Shown: piece by piece, positions 6,323 through 60,714 of the stretch | How positions within the stretch are numbered: the stretch's first letter is position 1 | Layout of the letters: each line of letters starts with the position of its first letter | NCBI GenBank assembly: GCA_964016885.1 | Contig: OZ024755.1 | Span: forward strand, 26,040,001-26,104,000 | DNA from: Eledone cirrhosa | Taxonomy: Eukaryota | Reading direction: 5' to 3' | Length of the DNA: 64,000 nt | The notes under the pieces: model-generated | What the model was told of the DNA's origin: nothing | The model's input: the letters and a program-made list of their open reading frames with translations, nothing else | The model's database searches: none | Program-made: the position numbers and the translations under genes

Positions 6323-6382
6323 GTAAGTAGCAATTCCATTACTCAAAGCAATCATTCAATCACGTAAATATAATTCTAATTA

Positions 6383-8336
6383 ATGTCTGTGAATGGGAAG
6401 TTTGTCCATGAAAACAAGACCATCCTGTTCTCAGGCCGTCAGAACGGGACCCACCGAGATGGAGTTGCAATCATCATGGACAGGGCTGCCAGTGGTGCCC
6501 TTGAGGAGTGGACTCCTATCAACGAACGCCTAATGACAGCAAGATTCACCACATCACATGCAAAGGTCACCATAGCTCAGTGCTATGCTCCAACCAACGA
6601 ACATAACGATGATGACAAGGACGCTTTCTACCAGCAACTACAAGATGTTGTCAACAAAACCCCACGTCATGACATCCTGATCATCATGGGAGACATGAAC
6701 GCACAGATCGGGGGAAGCAGGGTTGGCTTTGAACATGTTATTGGCCCCCATGCTTATGGAAACCGCACGGACAATGGAGACAGGTTTGTCCAGTTCTGTG
6801 CCATGAACAATATGAAAATCGGCTCGTCACTATTTGACCACAAGAACATCCACAAGGTCACATGGGCTTCGAACGACCACAGGACCAAGATGCAAATAGA
6901 CCACATTGCAATTGGCCCAAGTTGGAGAACTCCTTGCCTGCAGGACGTCCGAGTCTACCAGGGCGCAGATGTCTGCAGTGACCACTATCTGTCTGTTACC
7001 AAACTTAAAATCAGACTGAGGAAGCAGAAGAAGAAGAAAGCACCCACTACAAGGCGTTTTGACACTACCAAGCTGAAGAACGGTGACACAGAAGCACAGT
7101 TCGAGGCTGCTTTGAGGAACAGATTTGCTGTCCTTGGGGAGTCTGCACCAGGCTTGGTCAATTGGTGGGAGGAAATGAAGAAGACCATGGAAGCTGCAGG
7201 GGAAGAAATCCTGGGCTACAGGAAGTCCCTCAGAGAAGCTTGGGTCAGCGACAACACCTGGCTGATTAATGAAAGGAAAGCCCTACACCAGCGGAGGCAT
7301 GCCACTACCCCAGAGGCCATCAAGGTATATCAGCAGTATGTTGACAAGGAGGTGAAACGCAGCGCCCAAAAGGACAAACGAATGTGGCTTGAGGGTAAGG
7401 GGGAAGCAGCTGCGGCACGCAATGACATGCGCTCTGTGTACCAAATTGCCAAGAAAATCACCGGCAGCTCTAGAGCTAACTCAGGCCCGGTTAAAGCGAA
7501 AGATGGTACGCTGCTTTCCAAGGGTGAAGAAAAGTTAGTCGGATGGGCTGAACATTTCAAGGAAGTCCTCAACCGACCGGAGCCACGTGTGCCAGCAGAC
7601 ACTAAGGAACCTACTAGTTTGTTGCCTATCAATACTGATGACTTCACCGAGAAGGAAGTCCGCATGGCCATCAAAACCCTTAAGAATAACAAGTCACCAG
7701 GTATGGATGGCATTTCTGCTGAAATGCTGAAGTCAGGAGGCGAAAGCATGGTCAAGTAGTGGATGGGCCACTTATGTAATCTTGTGTGGAACACGGGTGA
7801 AGTCCCAGAAGATTGGAGAAACGGAGCGGTTGTCTGTATCCCCAAGAAAGGCAACCTTGCCAATTGTGGCAACTGGAGGGGAGTGACACTTCTCTCCATA
7901 CCAGGGAAGGTCTATTGTCTGGTGATACTGAACCGCATACGTGGCATGGTAGACCGGGAACTGCGAGAACAACAGGCAGGGTTCCGACCAAAACGTTCCT
8001 GTGCAGAGCAGATCTTTACGCTACGCCGCATCATTGAGAGGTCCAACGAATTCCAGAGGCCCCTCGCCATCAGCTTCATCGATTTCTCCAAAGCATTCGA
8101 TAGCATTCATCGACCGTCACTCTGGAGCATCATGCATGAGTATGGTCTGCCCCCAGAAAGTCATTTCGGCAATCAAACAGATTTACGCAAACTCCAAGTG
8201 CTGCATACGGACAGAGGATGGTTACAGTGACTGGTTTGAGGTGGTTACTGGCGTGCGTCAAGGTTGCTCGCTCTCTCCAATTCTCTTTGCCATAGCCATT
8301 GACTGGGTACTAAGAAGAGCATCTAAAGACCAGGGT
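6383..8336 (+). mobile_element. RTE-clade LINE, truncated (AP endonuclease + N-terminal RT)
   Basis: APE motifs (QCYAPT, MGDMNA, IDHI, SDH) and RT motifs (KSPGMDGI, NWRGVTLLS, DFSKAFDS, GVRQGCSLSP); one stop at ~7757 and a frameshift at ~8150. Confidence 0.92.
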
Positions 8337-9394
8337 ATATATTTGGGGAAGGTGTGTTTGGGTGATCCAATAAAATTTGACCTAGAATTATGTTTAACAA
8401 AGTCTTTTCATTGTAATGATATATGAATGGTTGGTGCCATAAGTATTTGTCTGTGAAACATTGCCATAAAAAGGACCTGTGCCAGGAAGGGCATCTGTTT
8501 GTAGGGAAGGACCTGTGCCAGAAAGTGTAGGGTTGAGCCTGTCGTAGGGCCTTCAGAACTAATGGAATGAAACAAAAAATGATATTTACAGCTCACATTT
8601 TTGTAAGTTGAGCTGACATCCTATGAAGCTGGATCTCATAGGTTTCATAGGTGTTTTAATGATAGGGGTCCAAGTTAATGGAAGAAATCTACTGTAATCA
8701 GGCCTGGAAAGGGATGGGCTCCGCCAGGCTTAAAATACCCAAGAAACGCTATATGTCAACACAGCGGCCCTACGACTCTATCAGGAATTACAGGACCATA
8801 CATACATTTAATGTGGCCAGTTATTTACACCACAATACATCTTATTTGACAGCTTATAAGACACACTTTTTTCCAAAAAATGTTCCAGCAAATTACTCTG
8901 CATCTTATAAGGTCAATGGTCAGTTTGGGTTAGTGGCTAGTGGAGTTCTAATGCTGTAGTGACTCTTAAATTACAACGTAAACATCTCTGCCAACAATAA
9001 CAACTTTTTTCTAAGAAAGCTACAATTTTAATAAATTTTATGATGAATAGAATATTTATTTTCACTTTCTTTTGTTTTAAAAATGTACTAAATATTTCAA
9101 CAAAAAATACAATGTAGAAAATAAAGTAAATATATTTTCCCACTTCCTTATGTTTTAAAAATGTACTAAAATATTACAATTAGAATTTTCGATGTAGAAT
9201 GATAAATTAAAAAGTACGATGTACAAACTTTATACCCTTCACCTGATATTCATAGTTTGAACACATTTACATATTTGTTATGCTTGCCCAAATTAAGGTG
9301 TGTTTTATAAACCCTCAAATACGGTATTTATTATGGTCAGTATATTTACTGCAATATTGAAAATAAAATTTATTTTCTGTTTTTACTCTTTCAG

Positions 9395-16152: not shown

Positions 16153-45942
<29,790 letters not shown>

Positions 45943-46684
45943 AACTGCGGAGAATGAAAGTAAAGTGACTCGCAACACTGAGACGGTGTCAGCCGAGAAA
46001 TTGTCCCCTGTGCAAATGTAGTAATGCAGCAATACAGATATGTACAGGAATAGAAGTAAATATATATGTTAGAGTGTGTCTGTCTGTCTATGTATGTGTG
46101 TGTGTATGTACGTATGTATACAAACATTTTCTCTCCAGCACACATTCATATCTAACCTCTCCAACAAGTTTATTGACCTCTGCCAGCCACCTTCACCACC
46201 CCAATAATAAATATACACCCAACCATATTACATCAATAAATGCTATACACCAGCCCTGACCTGGAACCCACAGGATAAGAGGAAAGGAGGCCGGCCCCGT
46301 GGCATCTGAATTAAGAAAACTGTAAACCAACAGGTGTGGAGTGGCGAGAGCAGCCCAGGATCGTGTACGGTGGCGGAGGGTCGTCAATGGTCTATGCTCC
46401 ACAGAAAGCGAAGGGGCTGAATGAATGAATGACCTTTCGCGGGTGACACCCATCTACCACCAACAACCCATTCTCTTTAAATTCCTTCAACTCAACACAT
46501 TTGCATTTAATTTCAGAAATCAACACTACAGGAATGTCATCTCTCGAGGGTGGGGCTGGCGCACCATTTTTAGGAAATTACGTGGTTTTCTCTACCCCCA
46601 CCCCTCAATCATACTCCTATACCTCTGAAATAGTGCATACGCACACACATATTCACCAACACAGACACACTAACACCTACGCAC

Positions 46685-46782
<98 letters not shown>

Positions 46783-46909
46783 AAGGGCGGTGCCCCAGCA
46801 TGGCCTCAGCCGGATGGCTGAAACAGGTAAAAGAGTATGTATATATATATATTTCGTTTCTGAATTTGTTTAGCAAGATTCTTTATCTGAAATCGTGTGT
46901 TGAAACCGG

Positions 46910-46987
46910 TATTGTTATACTTTGGGAGGGTCATGTTGCCAATAAGTGCGTGTGTTTCTTATTGGCAACATGACCCTCCCAAAGTAT

Positions 46988-46993
<6 letters not shown>
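46910..46993. repeat. Short near-perfect palindrome; same arm family as 50362-50610
   Basis: TTGTTATACTTTGGGAGGGTCATGTTGCCAATAAG...CTTATTGGCAACATGACCCTCCCAAAGTATAACAA. Confidence 0.85.
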
Positions 46994-47045
<52 letters not shown>

Positions 47046-47050
<5 letters not shown>

Positions 47051-47280
47051 ATATTAACAAATGGAAACTATATTTATAAAACCATATTTATTTCATTATA
47101 CATATTTCAAGGACACCAAAGCAAATTATGGTGCGCTTTCATCAGATAAAATATAATATAGATCAGTTTTATAAACAAATGTTGACATACCATAATTTGC
47201 TTTGGTGTCCTTGAAATATGTATAATGAAATAAATATGGTTTTATAAATATAGTTTCCATTTATTTAATATCATTGTGTA
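47046..47280. mobile_element. (TA)n-flanked foldback element (Penelope-like terminal repeat derivative)
   Basis: Arms ~47046-47132 and ~47189-47280 are reverse complements; a hammerhead overlaps one arm. Confidence 0.65.
47089..47153 (-). ncRNA. Minimal type I hammerhead ribozyme
   Basis: TATTTTAT-CTGATGA-AAGCGCACCA..TGGTGTCCTT-GAA-ATATGTAT-A-ATGAAATA; same helix I and core as the 59422 motif. Confidence 0.75.
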
Positions 47281-47289
47281 TATATATAT

Positions 47290-47436
47290 ATTATTTCTGA
47301 AGACGGCATATGTATGTGTTGGTATGTATATTCTATTTGATAGTTTGTATAATTTTGTATAATTTTGTACATAGATCTTTTGAATATGCATGCCAATTCT
47401 AACACATATATGTCCTAGAAACGATCGTTAAATAAT
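47290..47436 (+). ncRNA. Type I hammerhead ribozyme with long helix II insertion
   Basis: ATTATTT-CTGAAGA-[GGCATATGTATGTGTTGG...CTAACACATATATGTC]-GAA-ACGATCGT-T-AAATAAT; palindromic helix III; GUU triplet. Confidence 0.62.
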
Positions 47437-47493
47437 GAACTTTTTTTGTTTAATATAAGGAACTGTTTCATTGTTTTATTCATTATTTTTTTA

Positions 47494-47543
<50 letters not shown>

Positions 47544-47657
47544 ATAGGGTGTGGTAAAAACCAGGTAGATCATAACCTACCAGAGTACTCGATACTTGGG
47601 GTAGTAGAGTGGGCAATATGAAAAGATTCAGGACCTCGTCGGCGTCCTGAATCTTTT

Positions 47658-47699
<42 letters not shown>

Positions 47700-47886
47700 C
47701 CAGTTTTTGGTTAAGAAAGCCAGTTTCATGGATGGTTTCAACGTGATTTTGAAAATTTGGACTGCGAACAACAATTATAATTGAGTGGCTGCTATTTGCA
47801 GTATAGCAATATAAGGTTGCACTTACCAATGAAACGGTCGTAAATACCTGGATAAAATCCTTCTCTTAATGCTTACCTGTGTTTTC

Positions 47887-47937
<51 letters not shown>

Positions 47938-48345
47938 GGGCTCCGTAAGCTGCAGGGAGGGCAGCCCATCTAGAAGAGCACACACTCCGAACGAATAAGA
48001 TTGCATGAGGTAGACGTGGGTGCACAGTTGTAGGAGGGCTTACCTAGCCATGTGCGAGAACCTCTCGACCATAATCAGGCAATCATCCTTACATTTTCCC
48101 TTTAAGGTACATAGAGATTACCACTGTCAGGTAAAACATCTTATAGCAAACTATTCGGCGTTAAGGGGCTTTTGCGGCTTAAGAAGCTCTGCATAGCTGC
48201 CACTCTCAGTTTAGGCAGAGCCATAGACTAATGAATGAAACTAATAAAAAAAAAAATAATAAAAGATTGTATTCAGCTACGCTATCAAAAGAATGTTGAA
48301 TTAAAATTACATATTAAAAAAGAAACTTAAAAAAAAAAAGCCGAA

Positions 48346-48438
48346 TCTCGCGAGACGGATTCGAACCATCGACCTAAGGATGACAGATATCTATAACACC
48401 ACTACAGTCCTCCGCTCTACCAACTGAGCTATCGCGAG
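48346..48438 (-). tRNA. tRNA-Tyr(GTA) with 20-nt intron
   Basis: CTCGCGATAGCTCAGTTGGTAGAGCGGAGGACTGTAG-[TGGTGTTATAGATATCTGTC]-ATCCTTAGGTCGATGGTTCGAATCCGTCTCGCGAGA; A/B boxes; oligo-T terminator downstream. Confidence 0.96.
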
Positions 48439-49945: not shown

Positions 49946-50273
49946 TATATTTTAACGTGATTGTATAGTTAGGAAGTTGTCACTGAGATAACCTGAAGAT
50001 CGAGACAGACACAAACTCATTGAATGGATTTGATCTGCCCGGGGCAACAGCCAGAAAAAACAACAACTCGTGCGCGCACATAAACTGTGACACCGTGCAC
50101 ACACCCATACATACAACATAGAGAGATACTGGTGACGTCCCCTTGACTAGGTGTTCATGAAAGTGTCTGCACACACGCATTTCTATTCTAATGGCCAATT
50201 ATTTTCTCTCAGTTCATCCGAGTTTCGTACCGTTTGTGTTGTTGTTATTTACCTTTTACACATACACACACAT

Positions 50274-50354
50274 ATTGGGTCATCACGTATGAAATTTGTA
50301 GAAATTTGTAGAAAAAAAACAAATTTCTACAAATTTCATACTTGACGACCCTAT
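50274..50354. mobile_element. Tiny Tc1/mariner-like MITE (TIRs only)
   Basis: GGGTCATCACGTATGAAATTTGTAGAAATTTG / CAAATTTCTACAAATTTCATACTTGACGACCC, TA flanks. Confidence 0.55.
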
Positions 50355-50361
50355 ATGTATA

Positions 50362-50610
50362 TATTATACTTTGGGAGGGTCATGCTGCGAATAAAAACAC
50401 ACACATACCTGTTGGTTTTCACTTCTATTTATTATAAATTTCCGGTTGGTTGGTTCAATAACCAGATGGTTGTTTATATATTGTCAAAGCTCTTTCGTCA
50501 CACATTCTGTGACCTCCTCGGTGACTGATTTCTTAAATTGAATTGAAGTGAAAACTAACAGGTGCGTGTGTTTTTATTAGCAGCATGGCCCTCCCCAAGT
50601 ATAACAATAT
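50362..50610. mobile_element. Foldback element with ~65-bp inverted arms and a hammerhead relic in the loop
   Basis: ATACTTTGGGAGGGTCATGCTG...TTTTCACTTC / GAAGTGAAAA...CAGCATGGCCCTCCCCAAGTAT; TA-flanked. Confidence 0.7.
50483..50525 (-). ncRNA. Degenerate hammerhead ribozyme (core CCGAGGA)
   Basis: GTCA-CCGAGGA-G-GTCACA/TGTGAC-GAA-AGAGCT-T-TGAC; one core substitution; lies in the loop of a foldback element. Confidence 0.5.
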
Positions 50611-51330: not shown

Positions 51331-51589
51331 CCATGGAATTTTACCCGCCCTATATATATATATGCATAAATATATACATACATACACACACACACACATA
51401 CATATATTTATATATATATGTAATTTGTAATATTTTTTACATAGATCTCTAACATGATATACATACCAACACACACACATATATCCCAGAAACGATCGTA
51501 AAATGATGAATTTTTCAATATAAGGAACCTGTTCTTTGTTTTTATTAATTTATATATATATATATATGAGAAAACTCATCGTTAAAACA

Positions 51590-51955: not shown

Positions 51956-52048
51956 CTCGCGATAGCTCAGTTGGTAGAGCGGAGGACTGTAGTGGTATTA
52001 TTTCTCTCTGTTATCCTTAGGTCGATGGTTCGAATCCGTCTCGCGAGA
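51956..52048 (+). tRNA. tRNA-Tyr(GTA) with 20-nt intron
   Basis: Same exons; intron TGGTATTATTTCTCTCTGTT; poly-T terminator. Confidence 0.96.
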
Positions 52049-52772: not shown

Positions 52773-52863
52773 TCTCGCGAGACGGATTCGAACCATCGAC
52801 CTAAGGATAACAGAGAATTAACGCCACTACAGTCCTCCGCTCTACCAACTGAGCTATCGCGAG
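52773..52863 (-). tRNA. tRNA-Tyr(GTA) with 18-nt intron
   Basis: Same exons; intron TGGCGTTAATTCTCTGTT; poly-T terminator. Confidence 0.96.
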
Positions 52864-53774: not shown

Positions 53775-53867
53775 TCTCGCGAGACGGATTCGAACCATCG
53801 ACCTAAGGATAACAGAAAGAATTAACACCACTACAGTCCTCCGCTCTACCAACTGAGCTATCGCGAG
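53775..53867 (-). tRNA. tRNA-Tyr(GTA) with 20-nt intron
   Basis: Same exons; intron TGGTGTTAATTCTTTCTGTT; poly-T terminator. Confidence 0.96.
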
Positions 53868-55518: not shown

Positions 55519-55610
55519 TCTCGCGAGACGGATTCGAACCATCGACCTAAGGATAACAACTGTTAATTGACCACTACAGTCCTCCGCTCTACCAACTGAG
55601 CTATCGCGAG
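55519..55610 (-). tRNA. tRNA-Tyr(GTA) with 19-nt intron
   Basis: Same exons; intron TGGTCAATTAACAGTTGTT; T-run downstream. Confidence 0.96.
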
Positions 55611-57412: not shown

Positions 57413-57450
57413 GCAATTGACAATGCATATAATGCTGAAACCGGTATTGT
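57413..57450 (+). ncRNA. Degenerate hammerhead ribozyme relic
   Basis: GCAA-TTGACAA-T-GCAT/ATGC-T-GAA-ACCGGT-A-TTGT; helices intact, core has two transitions. Confidence 0.4.
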
Positions 57451-57668: not shown

Positions 57669-57742
<74 letters not shown>

Positions 57743-58779
57743 AATGAATAATAACAGGTAGACATCATAAAAAGGTAATTTATTCCGTGTGCTTACAAAT
57801 GTTTCCACGGTGGTACTACAGCCTAGTTATGCTACGTGCAAATTTACAACTATTTGCAGAACTCAAATATCCAATGCTGTGACCACTGTATCCTCAGAGA
57901 AGAATGCACATAGCATAACTAGGCTGTAGTACCACCGTGGAAACATTTGTAACCACACGGAATAAATTACCTTTTTATGATGTCTACCTGTTATTATTCA
58001 TTCTTTATATACACTCCGGAATACAGAAGGATCAGGAACTAAGTTTCTTCAACAATTCTTCCATAACTCGTAGAGTAACCTCTCACCGTACGTCAACCAT
58101 ATCCAGTGTAGTAATTAACCATTACTACATCTAGGATACTGAGGTTGAGTTATTTTATTTTTATCTGGCTGCCTATTGATAAACACAGAAAAACTTGATT
58201 AACTCACTGCTAATTAGATAATTATTTTACTATTATACCATCCTTTGTGAAACATGTTTGAAGTTTGAAGTTCTGACCGATCTGCGGAAAAAGTTTGTAT
58301 TTTGAATTTTAAACGTGTCTAGGTACCAAGGCTTTTTGCCCATATGAGTCTGTGAGTATTGATTTATTATTTTCTAGATCGTACAGGCAGACCTTATGTT
58401 GTTGAATTAAGATTTTTCACTCTAGCGATCTTATTAGTCAATTGCAACTATAACATGTAAATGTTCATCAAATATTAATTTATACTGCTTAGAAGCGATT
58501 CCTAGAGCTGAAATGATTGTAAATGACCTCTCTGAGTCTAAACTCTAAGCTATTTATTTATATATATATATATATATTTATTAAAATACCAGATTAAAGT
58601 TTAAGCAAATAATCGCTGCTTTCACCCTTAACGGGATCTTCTGAAATAACGGTTTTTATATATAATCCTTATCGAAGCCACTTCGGATTTTGGTCATCAC
58701 ATTTTTTATTATTACTATATATATATATATGTGTGTGTGTGTAAATAATCCGAGGCCATATTCATTTGGTTCAGGTTTA

Positions 58780-58837
58780 CCGTCTGAGGAGCTCTGGCTG
58801 TCATAACTAATAGTCCTCAGCGAAATATATATAACGG
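58780..58837 (+). ncRNA. Minimal type I hammerhead ribozyme
   Basis: CCGT-CTGAGGA-GCT...AGC-GAA-A-TATATA-T-A-ACGG: helix I CCGT/ACGG, full core, helix II, palindromic helix III, AUA cleavage triplet. Confidence 0.8.
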
Positions 58838-58990
58838 ATTTAATAAACCTGAACCAAATGAATATGGCCTCGGGGGTTTTATTGATATATAATGCTCCGC
58901 CCTGCACTTTTATACAGGTCGTTGAGCGCTTTCTTTTAACTACTTCGCAACCCACAGACCATTACGTGGTCCACACTATAGGTTGACCCC

Positions 58991-59049
<59 letters not shown>

Positions 59050-59142
59050 GGGATTCGAAACCGATCGGTAAAGGTAACTATAGTAGGTAAAGTCAATTTT
59101 TTAAAATTTATTTTGAAACTTTTTCATTATTTACTAAACCTT

Positions 59143-59173
<31 letters not shown>

Positions 59174-59421
59174 ATGTAGGAGGTGAGTTTTATTGTAGCA
59201 CAATCAAGCAATGCAAATATCGGATAAGTAGCACTCAACAGTTTATAAGACTGGAGTATAAATAATATAAAATCAAAAGATGGTTAAAAGAGTTTCATGT
59301 ATTTTATTATGCGCATTTCAAAAACAAATATCATCATGGGATAATATTTGCGTTCTCAACATATGTTGATTTAACACTTCACTGCTCGTAAGTGTTTTTT
59401 AAGTTTCATATCATGTCTCTC

Positions 59422-59492
59422 TATTTTATCTGATGAGAACGCAAATATCATCCCATGATGATATTTGTTTTTGAAATGCGCATAATAAAATA
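59422..59492 (+). ncRNA. Minimal type I hammerhead ribozyme
   Basis: TATTTTAT-CTGATGA-[CAAATATCATC/GATGATATTTG stem]-GAA-ATGCGCAT-A-ATAAAATA: 8-bp helix I, palindromic helix III ATGCGCAT, AUA site. Confidence 0.8.
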
Positions 59493-59616
59493 CATGAAAC
59501 TCTTTTAACCATCTTTTGATTTTATATTATTTATACTCCAGTCTTATAAACTGTTGAGTGCTACTTATCCGATATTTGCATTGCTTTATTGTGCTACAAT
59601 AAAACTCACCTCCTAC

Positions 59617-59661
<45 letters not shown>

Positions 59662-59817
59662 TAAGGGGTCAACCTATAGTGTGGACCACGTAATGGTCTG
59701 TGGGTTGCGAAGTAGTTAAAAGAAAGCGCTCAACGACCTGTATAAAAGTGCAGGGCGGAGCATTATATATCAATAAAATCCCCGAGGCCATATTCATTTG
59801 GTTCAGGTTTATTAAAT

Positions 59818-59875
59818 CCGTTATATATATTTCGCTGAGGACTATTAGTTATGACAGCCAGAGCTCCTCAGACGG
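59818..59875 (-). ncRNA. Minimal type I hammerhead ribozyme (inverted copy of 58780-58837)
   Basis: Reverse complement of the 58780 motif, in the right arm of the palindrome. Confidence 0.8.
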
Positions 59876-59912
59876 TAAACCTGAACCAAATGAATATGGC
59901 CTCGGATTATTT

Positions 59913-59970
<58 letters not shown>

Positions 59971-60714
59971 ATAATAAAAAATGTGATGACCAAAATCCGA
60001 AGAGGCTTCGATAAGGATTATATATAAAAACCGTTATTTCAGAAGATCCCGTTAAGGGTGAAAGCAGCGATTATTTGCTTAAACTTTAATCTGGTATTTT
60101 AATAAATATATATATATATATTAGGTATAGGATTATCCTAGATGTAGTAATGGTTAATTACTACACTGGATATGGTTGACGTACGGTGAGAGGTTACTCT
60201 ACGAGTTATGGAAGAATTGTTGAAGAAACTTAGTTCCTGATCCTTCTGTATTCCGGAGTGTATATAAAGAATGAATAATAACAGGTAGACATCATAAAAA
60301 GGTAATTTATTCCGTGTGGTTACAAATGTTTCCACGGTGGTACTACAGCCTAGTTATGCTATGTGCATTCTTCTCTGAGGATACAGTGGTCACAGCATTG
60401 GATATTTGAGTTCTGCAAATAGTTGTAAATTTACATTGCCTTTGTCAGTGTTGAACAAAAGGGCAACGATGGTTGCTAAACACTGTACGGCTTAATTCGG
60501 GATGTTTGTTTACAAACAAACCGAGCATTATAATAAATGTTCGGTAAATCCATACGTACATATATATATATGTGTGCATGTATGTATATATATATACATA
60601 CTACTGTACGTCTGTATACATATATGTATGTACGTATACATACTTATATTTAAGTAACAGCCGTACTAAGAGTGAGAAATGAAATTTCGTTTCATTTTTT
60701 CCACACACACACAC

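Follow-up and report, generated by a model that had tools for sequence, protein, structure and literature searches.

Near the gene TTC27, in the 64,000-nucleotide window of Eledone cirrhosa DNA analysed here, seven modules alternate with (TA)n runs along a tract of 1.1 kb, and several of them carry whole or partial hammerhead ribozymes. This tract raises the question of what the modules are and whether their ribozymes have any role beside the gene. In our view, it is made of stacked fragments of several high-copy families, likely 5'-truncated 3' ends of Penelope-like elements (PLEs), with hammerheads for which no activity is predicted here. We put the probability of this reading at about 75%.

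The layout was read from the sequence between 45500 and 49500. A scan placed the starts of (TA)n runs at 46692, 46840, 46992, 47279, 47500, 47662 and 47892. An 88-nt run (46692-46779) forms the left border of the pile and a 43-nt run (47892-47934) the right one, and the inner runs include stretches of 55 nt (46992-47046), 13 nt (47279-47291), 42 nt (47500-47541) and 36 nt (47662-47697). An earlier note had reported a hammerhead 3' half running into a palindrome, a hairpin with an intact hammerhead on the minus strand, a second hammerhead with a long helix II on the plus strand and a further 3' half around 47830, all in modules bounded by (TA)n. Every one of these features is present, with the seven TA runs lying between and around the modules, and two modules (M0, a repeat tail, and M4) come in addition to them. 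Outside the pile, the window holds five near-identical tRNA genes (48346-48438, 51956-52048, 52773-52863, 53775-53867 and 55519-55610; Rfam), the nearest 400 bp away. They have a 21-23-nt insert after the anticodon, and their sequence resembles that of tRNA-Tyr(GUA) genes with an intron; ARAGORN, run in bacterial mode, calls them Leu or unknown.

The leftmost module, M0 (46780-46839, plus strand), is a 60-nt repeat tail, presumably SINE-like, without a hammerhead core; five further copies in the window show 73-92% identity. Its GAAAC-NN-GTA was rejected as part of a ribozyme, as it mimics a 3' half but has no matching other half. Tails of this type lie at 46780-46839, 5464, 53417, 53564, 1963-2013 and 25459-25502, and two of the six adjoin a TA run. 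M1a (46853-46911, plus strand) was recognized by scans as a remnant ending in a hammerhead 3' half at 46902-46911 (GAAACCGGTA); a search of this module for a CUGANGA core found none. The palindrome that follows, M1b (46912-46991, plus strand), adjoins the TA of M1a's GTA and has 34-nt arms (46913-46946 and 46958-46991) that are 100% complementary. Alignments identify it as the 3' tip, about 45 nt long, of a repeat family, preceded by its own inverted copy. Scans and alignment also revealed a longer TA-flanked foldback of this family at 50360-50610 (minus strand), with the same 3' end and a different fold-back point; its spacer holds a weak minimal hammerhead (50521-50487) with one core change and an extra base before helix II. 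We discarded the possibility that the GAAACCGGTA half and the palindrome form one element, given that the longer copy of the palindrome family is devoid of that motif, and the sequences indicate that the two come from different elements. The half at 57437 matches the end of M1a at 17 of 18 bases, including the first bases past the site, so that the boundary between M1a and M1b may shift by a few bases. This half (57433-57450) and another at 59057 are isolated palindromic 3' halves, and a TA-flanked palindrome with 40-nt arms (93%) at 50270-50358 directly adjoins the M1b-family foldback. Rfam matches to miRNA families at 46911-46993 are far under the gathering score and were set aside as reflecting a plain hairpin.

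M2 (47047-47278, minus strand) is a high-copy foldback element, as revealed by scans, read mapping and folding, with arms of 77 nt (47056-47132 and 47189-47265) that are 99% complementary. It carries a type I hammerhead (47097-47145) with the core at 47145 and the predicted cut between 47097 and 47096, built from CUGAUGA, a 9-bp helix II with C.C at pair 4, GAAA, a palindromic helix III and UA. A related foldback at 59174-59618 (plus strand; hammerhead 59430-59484) aligns to M2 across the hammerhead and downstream, and has a longer 3' end. Other copies of M2 are followed by (TA)n, as seen in 5,240 reads, or by a longer 3' end resembling that of 59174-59618. The 3' end of M2 falls about 90 nt short of that of the 59174 element and of many reads, to be compared with published tails of 30-40 bp. 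Within copies, arm identity amounts to 85/88 in M2, 177/179 in the 59174 element, 99/101 in 57740, 37/37 in M1b and 68/81 in 50360. In reads from elsewhere in the genome, positions 47265 or 47274 are joined to 47049, that is, an M2 arm end, a short (TA)n and the next M2 arm start; copies of the M2 family thus adjoin one another there across TA runs. The 59174 foldback lies in the first hotspot of the window (57740-60435), surrounded by a nested head-to-head pair (58578-58993 versus 59662-60105, 93%), and around the hammerheads at 58784 (plus) and 59871 (minus) helix I is extended by an enclosing stretch of 30 bp. Another foldback with 101-nt arms is found at 57740-58005.

M3 (47292-47499, plus strand; scan, mapping and folding) is a high-copy element that starts at helix I. 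Its hammerhead comprises a core at 47297-47303, a helix II domain of 114 nt, GAAA at 47418, a palindromic helix III and GUU, with the site after 47429. The base of helix II is C.A (or an extra C plus unpaired UA), which explains why M3 was missed by the strict scan and found by the relaxed one. A 5'-truncated copy of this family lies between TA runs at 51424-51550 (plus strand; alignment), keeping M3's 3' end and having a GUA site. M4 (47542-47661), a repeat of no assigned class between TA runs, ends in a foldback of 17 nt and has no hammerhead; its copy at 41904, found by alignment, has another foldback at the same end; its hairpin loop was considered as a hammerhead part and rejected, no matching other half being found. 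M5 (47698-47891, plus strand; scans and shuffles) contains a 3' half at 47831-47842. Its first base opens a 9/11 match to the 5' strand of helix I, followed by a degenerate core, and such a match arises in 0.1% of shuffles within the first five offsets and in 2.5% anywhere. This match, the degenerate core and a 114-nt spacing as in M3 suggest that M5 is likely a decayed, M3-like whole hammerhead.

The motifs exceed chance in a shuffled control, for which we used 100 local dinucleotide shuffles with the TA runs kept fixed. Three full hammerheads score at least 12 in the window, two in the tract and one at 59430, versus a shuffle mean of 0.02 (maximum 1). Strict palindromic 3' halves number 12 in the whole window versus 3.4±1.8 in shuffles (maximum 8), and three within 46850-47900 versus 0.03 (maximum 1). 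The descriptor was relaxed after the motifs had been seen, what somewhat flatters the contrast. Seven of the 12 halves in the window lie at most 100 nt from a TA run, against a background of 17% (p=0.0016), but outside the tract the figure is only four of nine, a borderline result (p=0.053).

Mapping of reads and contigs from four runs onto 47047-47499 (453 bases) at 80% likeness matched 6,889 contigs of run X1, possibly from the same sample, 33,695 raw reads of run X11, a reduced-representation run with the same species label, as well as 85 contigs from organism B and 38 from organism C. Copy numbers do not follow from the summed depth, which is taken here to mean "high copy". Among the listed contig pieces none covers all of 47047-47499, and the local order of modules therefore rests on the assembly. 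Within the 64 kb, alignment found copies of M0 (five), M1b, M3 and M4. Core conservation is judged on the 40 of 63 variants listed for M2 plus the M3 stretch. Among the 20 listed for M2, 11 fall inside the hammerhead fold: none in the core, three in loop II, six keeping the pairing, one offset by a change in its partner that is also listed, provided that both occur in the same reads, and one breaking the pairing; the other nine are in the mirror arm or outer end. Reads of the family often carry C at M2 positions 11.1/11.2 (47212 and 47211). For M3, 18 of the 20 listed variants comprise one in the core (about 30% A in place of U17), four that keep pairs, two that break them, one that depends on register and the rest unpaired. 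The U/A alternative at M3's cleavage nucleotide is thus the only core variant listed for the two families. GUU is the majority state of the M3 family, with GUA in about 30% of depth, and is common in natural PLE hammerheads, which led us to abandon the idea that GUU is a private decay of M3. Such helix-preserving variation indicates that the ribozymes have been shaped by selection at the level of the family.

The modules behave like PLE ends, suggesting that membership of this group is likely. Truncation at the 5' end, an inverted copy or a palindrome at the junction, all PLE traits, are observed in M1b, M2, M4, the 50360 and 59174 foldbacks and the truncated M3 copy, and a contig of organism C, whose 5' end carries the first bases of M3 in inverted orientation, is a further instance of PLE-type inversion. 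Copies within the M1b family, and likewise within the M4 family, share their 3' end but fold back at different points; together with the M3 contig of organism C, this points to inversions arising repeatedly. Another PLE trait is a type I hammerhead close to the 3' end whose helix III is minimal or palindromic, and those of M2 and M3 are complete and lie 47-70 nt from that end. The insertion bias of PLEs for AT-rich or (TA)n DNA is seen as well, with every module, and other M2 copies too, flanked by TA. The claim in the earlier note that different PLE-related families repeatedly targeted TA microsatellites is supported as far as unrelated families stacked at (TA)n are concerned, and a PLE origin fits their anatomy, but no PLE open reading frame (ORF) is tied to them. 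Neither a PLE reverse transcriptase (RT) nor a GIY-YIG domain was found with Pfam in 87 of the 90 candidate frames at 38-64 kb (the 121 frames in the first 38 kb lay outside the scan). No contig linked module ends to a PLE ORF, and exact-pattern scans of metagenome and viral contigs gave 0 loci. As the fragments are non-coding, this absence is expected either way. Besides the missing ORF, other points count against a PLE explanation: the G10.1-C11.1 pair before GAAA and the extra base after A9 of the PLE consensus are replaced in M2 by A-U and no extra base and in M3 by C.A, the consensus features occurring only in the 50521 motif; the M2 fold-back junction is multi-copy, unlike a one-off inversion; and TA adjacency is borderline outside the tract.

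Under the PLE reading, the endonuclease of the element would nick TA-rich DNA, and target-primed reverse transcription would begin at or near the RNA 3' end and stop early. The cDNA would often fold back and self-prime its second strand, giving a head-to-head inverted copy as in M1b, M2 and M4. TA runs left at the ends of each insertion would stay targets, and families would accumulate. The hammerhead would be carried along in the terminal repeat; judging from published PLEs, it may have served the parent RNA with the assistance of a dimer or a protein.

None of the four motifs is predicted to work at this place; the folding energies are secondary-structure predictions, with tertiary contacts and proteins outside the model. 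A minus-strand transcript toward TTC27 would make M2's 77-nt antisense arm before the ribozyme, and the hammerhead fold is predicted to cost a ddG of 60 kcal/mol with that arm, versus 2.5 without it, in an RNA starting in the spacer. In any RNA reading through the element, the M2 ribozyme is therefore predicted to be sequestered by this arm. The active fold of M3 is predicted to lie 12 kcal/mol above the ensemble, and its helix III requires a partner. Helix III of M3 and that of M5 can pair (-9.4 kcal/mol, predicted), but the helix I strand of M3 would form 2 bp with the M5 flank, 0 with the M1a flank and 1 with the plus arm of M2, and we rejected a productive M3-M5 or M3-M1a dimer, as no neighbour completes helix I (0-2 bp). 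The other two motifs, M1a and M5, have no working or intact 5' core.

The recurring junction of M2, its long helix I and the shared helix II mismatch leave room for a bolder reading, in which M2 is a self-propagating non-coding hairpin retroelement; we regard it as tentative and less likely than not. With the inverted arm absent, the M2 spacer would pair as the 5' strand in a long helix I with 32 predicted enclosing pairs (16 are predicted for 59430, 35 for 58784 and 8 for M3), and M2, M3, 59430 and 58784 all have C.C or C.U at the fourth pair of helix II. The spacer/arm junction is crossed by 156 reads (47129-47201/47202/47209), and 1,130 reads have a homologous spacer ending at the same arm start, shorter junctions being rarer; in the spacer itself, 49-52 contigs differ. 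According to this proposal, an RNA starting in the spacer would fold into a hammerhead with a long helix I. This subtype would be marked by a C.Y mismatch that is conserved in helix II and common to three unrelated families here. A Penelope-type enzyme would copy the RNA in trans, and a programmed fold-back of the cDNA would rebuild the inverted arm at each insertion, also silencing the ribozyme in read-through RNA. If true, many "MITEs" in mollusc repeat annotations would be retroelements in need of reclassification.

MITEs of the Tc1/mariner type target TA and have inverted arms, TA flanks and high copy numbers; their terminal inverted repeats are fixed, and the TA is duplicated once. The foldbacks M1b and M2 could be TA-specific MITEs moved by a transposase of this type, the hammerhead being a passenger from a retroelement ancestor. 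The long, near-perfect arms, the TA flanks, the very high copy number and the spacer/arm junction common to many M2 copies (156 reads) would suit this view. Unlike such MITEs, however, the modules vary in arm length and fold-back point within families, exist as one-armed truncated copies, carry a ribozyme and are flanked by long (TA)n tracts instead of one TA, and their helix-preserving variation points to selection on RNA. A target-site duplication is unreadable because the flanks lie inside (TA)n. On balance, we consider a MITE origin unlikely.

Equally unlikely is an origin of M3 and M5 as solo monomers of non-LTR retrozymes, which are hammerhead circles of about 200 nt, instead of as direct PLE ends, with M2 being PLE-derived. 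Their size (194-208 nt), type I hammerhead and lack of an ORF are compatible with it, and the available text of a recent preprint (10.64898/2026.07.22.740005) describes solo monomers and derives retrozymes from PLE terminal repeats. On the other hand, tandem hammerhead units are absent at this locus, no tail-to-head M3 joint appears among the 15 of 33 joints listed, the units begin at helix I and not at the cleavage site, and they show 5' truncation and a 3'-biased depth, the 3' part of M3 being about four times as deep as its 5' end in run X1.

The suggestion of the earlier note that the stacked motifs might cleave divergent transcripts, or transcripts upstream of the TTC27 start, is not supported, and we find a co-opted role at the TTC27 promoter highly improbable. 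TTC27 lies on the minus strand, where an exon search returned TTC27-like proteins of mussels, periwinkle and clam that match 12-14 exons at 16-37 kb. The earlier note placed the motifs about 1 kb upstream of the TTC27 start, but the 5'-most exon with (weak) protein homology support (37918-38092, minus strand) starts about 9 kb from the tract. A homolog search with the exon at 38090-37920 returned none, and an N-terminal profile did not find the first exon; a candidate first coding exon was read from the sequence at 45721-45739 (minus strand). Near it, at 45.0-46.0 kb, CpG o/e reaches 1.25-1.79, and this CpG-rich segment hints at a promoter 1-2 kb from the tract. Also in favour of co-option are the two complete cores, one on each strand, and the possible pairing of M3 and M5 helix III. 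Yet the start of TTC27 is only a candidate, 1-9 kb away, M2 is predicted to be sequestered, M3 to misfold as a monomer and to form only 2 bp with the M5 flank, M1a and M5 are without a functional core, and thousands of copies carry these motifs as a family trait. A TTC27 intron also holds a fragment of a non-LTR retrotransposon (38228-39229, plus strand) with RT and a PHD-like finger (Pfam), and a longer endonuclease/RT-like non-LTR frame was read by eye at 6.4-8.4 kb (6380-8426, plus strand).

Least probable of all is that AT-rich DNA yielded the hammerheads by chance or that the assembly created them: none of the listed contigs runs across the stretch and Rfam has no hammerhead at gathering score in the window, nor at E<=10 on 46000-48300, but shuffles give far fewer motifs and independent copies exist in the window and in the raw reads of another sample.

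We regard the tract as a clear, ordinary case in which debris of the PLE type has nested in TA microsatellites; nothing points to a function in TTC27. The hammerhead families of this mollusc escape Rfam, and a literature search judged by titles returned no description of such families in cephalopods; one on palindromes of non-autonomous Penelope elements gave unrelated titles only. The word "hammerhead" is not found in the available part of the octopus repeat annotation, and the accessible text on active Penelope families of Octopus vulgaris (PMC13282606) does not mention these ribozymes. The modules may offer short natural substrates for studying how inverted PLE ends are formed.

The closest known systems are PLEs, whose hammerheads are described in the available parts of Cervera and De la Pena (2014, PMC4209133) and its supplement as widespread, mostly single in truncated copies and at times arranged on opposite strands at distances of 100-700 bp, with a palindromic helix III, low activity even as dimers and common GUU triplets. 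The motifs of our tract resemble these pLTR hammerheads in being type I, with a CUGANGA/GAAA/NUH core and a palindromic, dimer-requiring helix III, in their GUU, GUA and AUA triplets, and in the many families per genome, the mostly single motifs and the opposite-strand pairs. Unlike the consensus there (helix I of 4-5 bp, G10.1-C11.1), helix I plus its extension reaches 16-35 predicted pairs in three elements here, the helix II domain of M3 has 114 nt, pair 4 of helix II is C.C/C.U in four elements, and the modules are known from non-coding fragments with no PLE ORF linked.

As for insertion, 5' truncation, an adjacent inverted copy, a variable tail of 30-40 bp and a bias for (TA)n were described in PLEs (Craig et al. 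2021, PMC8557442), and palindromes at inverted junctions were read as self-priming (Arkhipova et al. 2013, PMC3846280), as far as the available text of both goes. From the portions accessible, other studies report that a PLE cuts AT-rich DNA with internal RT starts, that its protein-assisted hammerhead is dispensable for insertion, with RNA-seq ends at its site not seen (PMC11167929), and that PLEs insert into or beside earlier copies (PMC6765202). The nesting of PLE-type copies in (TA)n has thus already been described in kind. Our modules share with the PLEs of PMC8557442 and PMC3846280 heavy 5' truncation, an inverted 5' copy, a junction palindrome, possibly a variable tail, and (TA)n targets that hide duplications, but the copies are wholly non-coding (80-450 nt) and the M2 junction is recurrent. 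Naiads are without canonical hammerheads; Neptune, Poseidon and Hydra are candidate clades for the modules. Like the non-LTR retrozymes in the available text of Cervera and De la Pena (2020, PMC7229834) and the Li et al. 2026 preprint (10.64898/2026.07.22.740005), the elements are small, non-coding, type I, PLE-related and found in molluscs, but the defining marks of a retrozyme are tandem units and circular RNA, and no tandem is seen at our locus. Compared with these systems, what is unusual here is limited to the long helix I, the common C.Y mismatch of helix II and the multi-copy fold-back junction.
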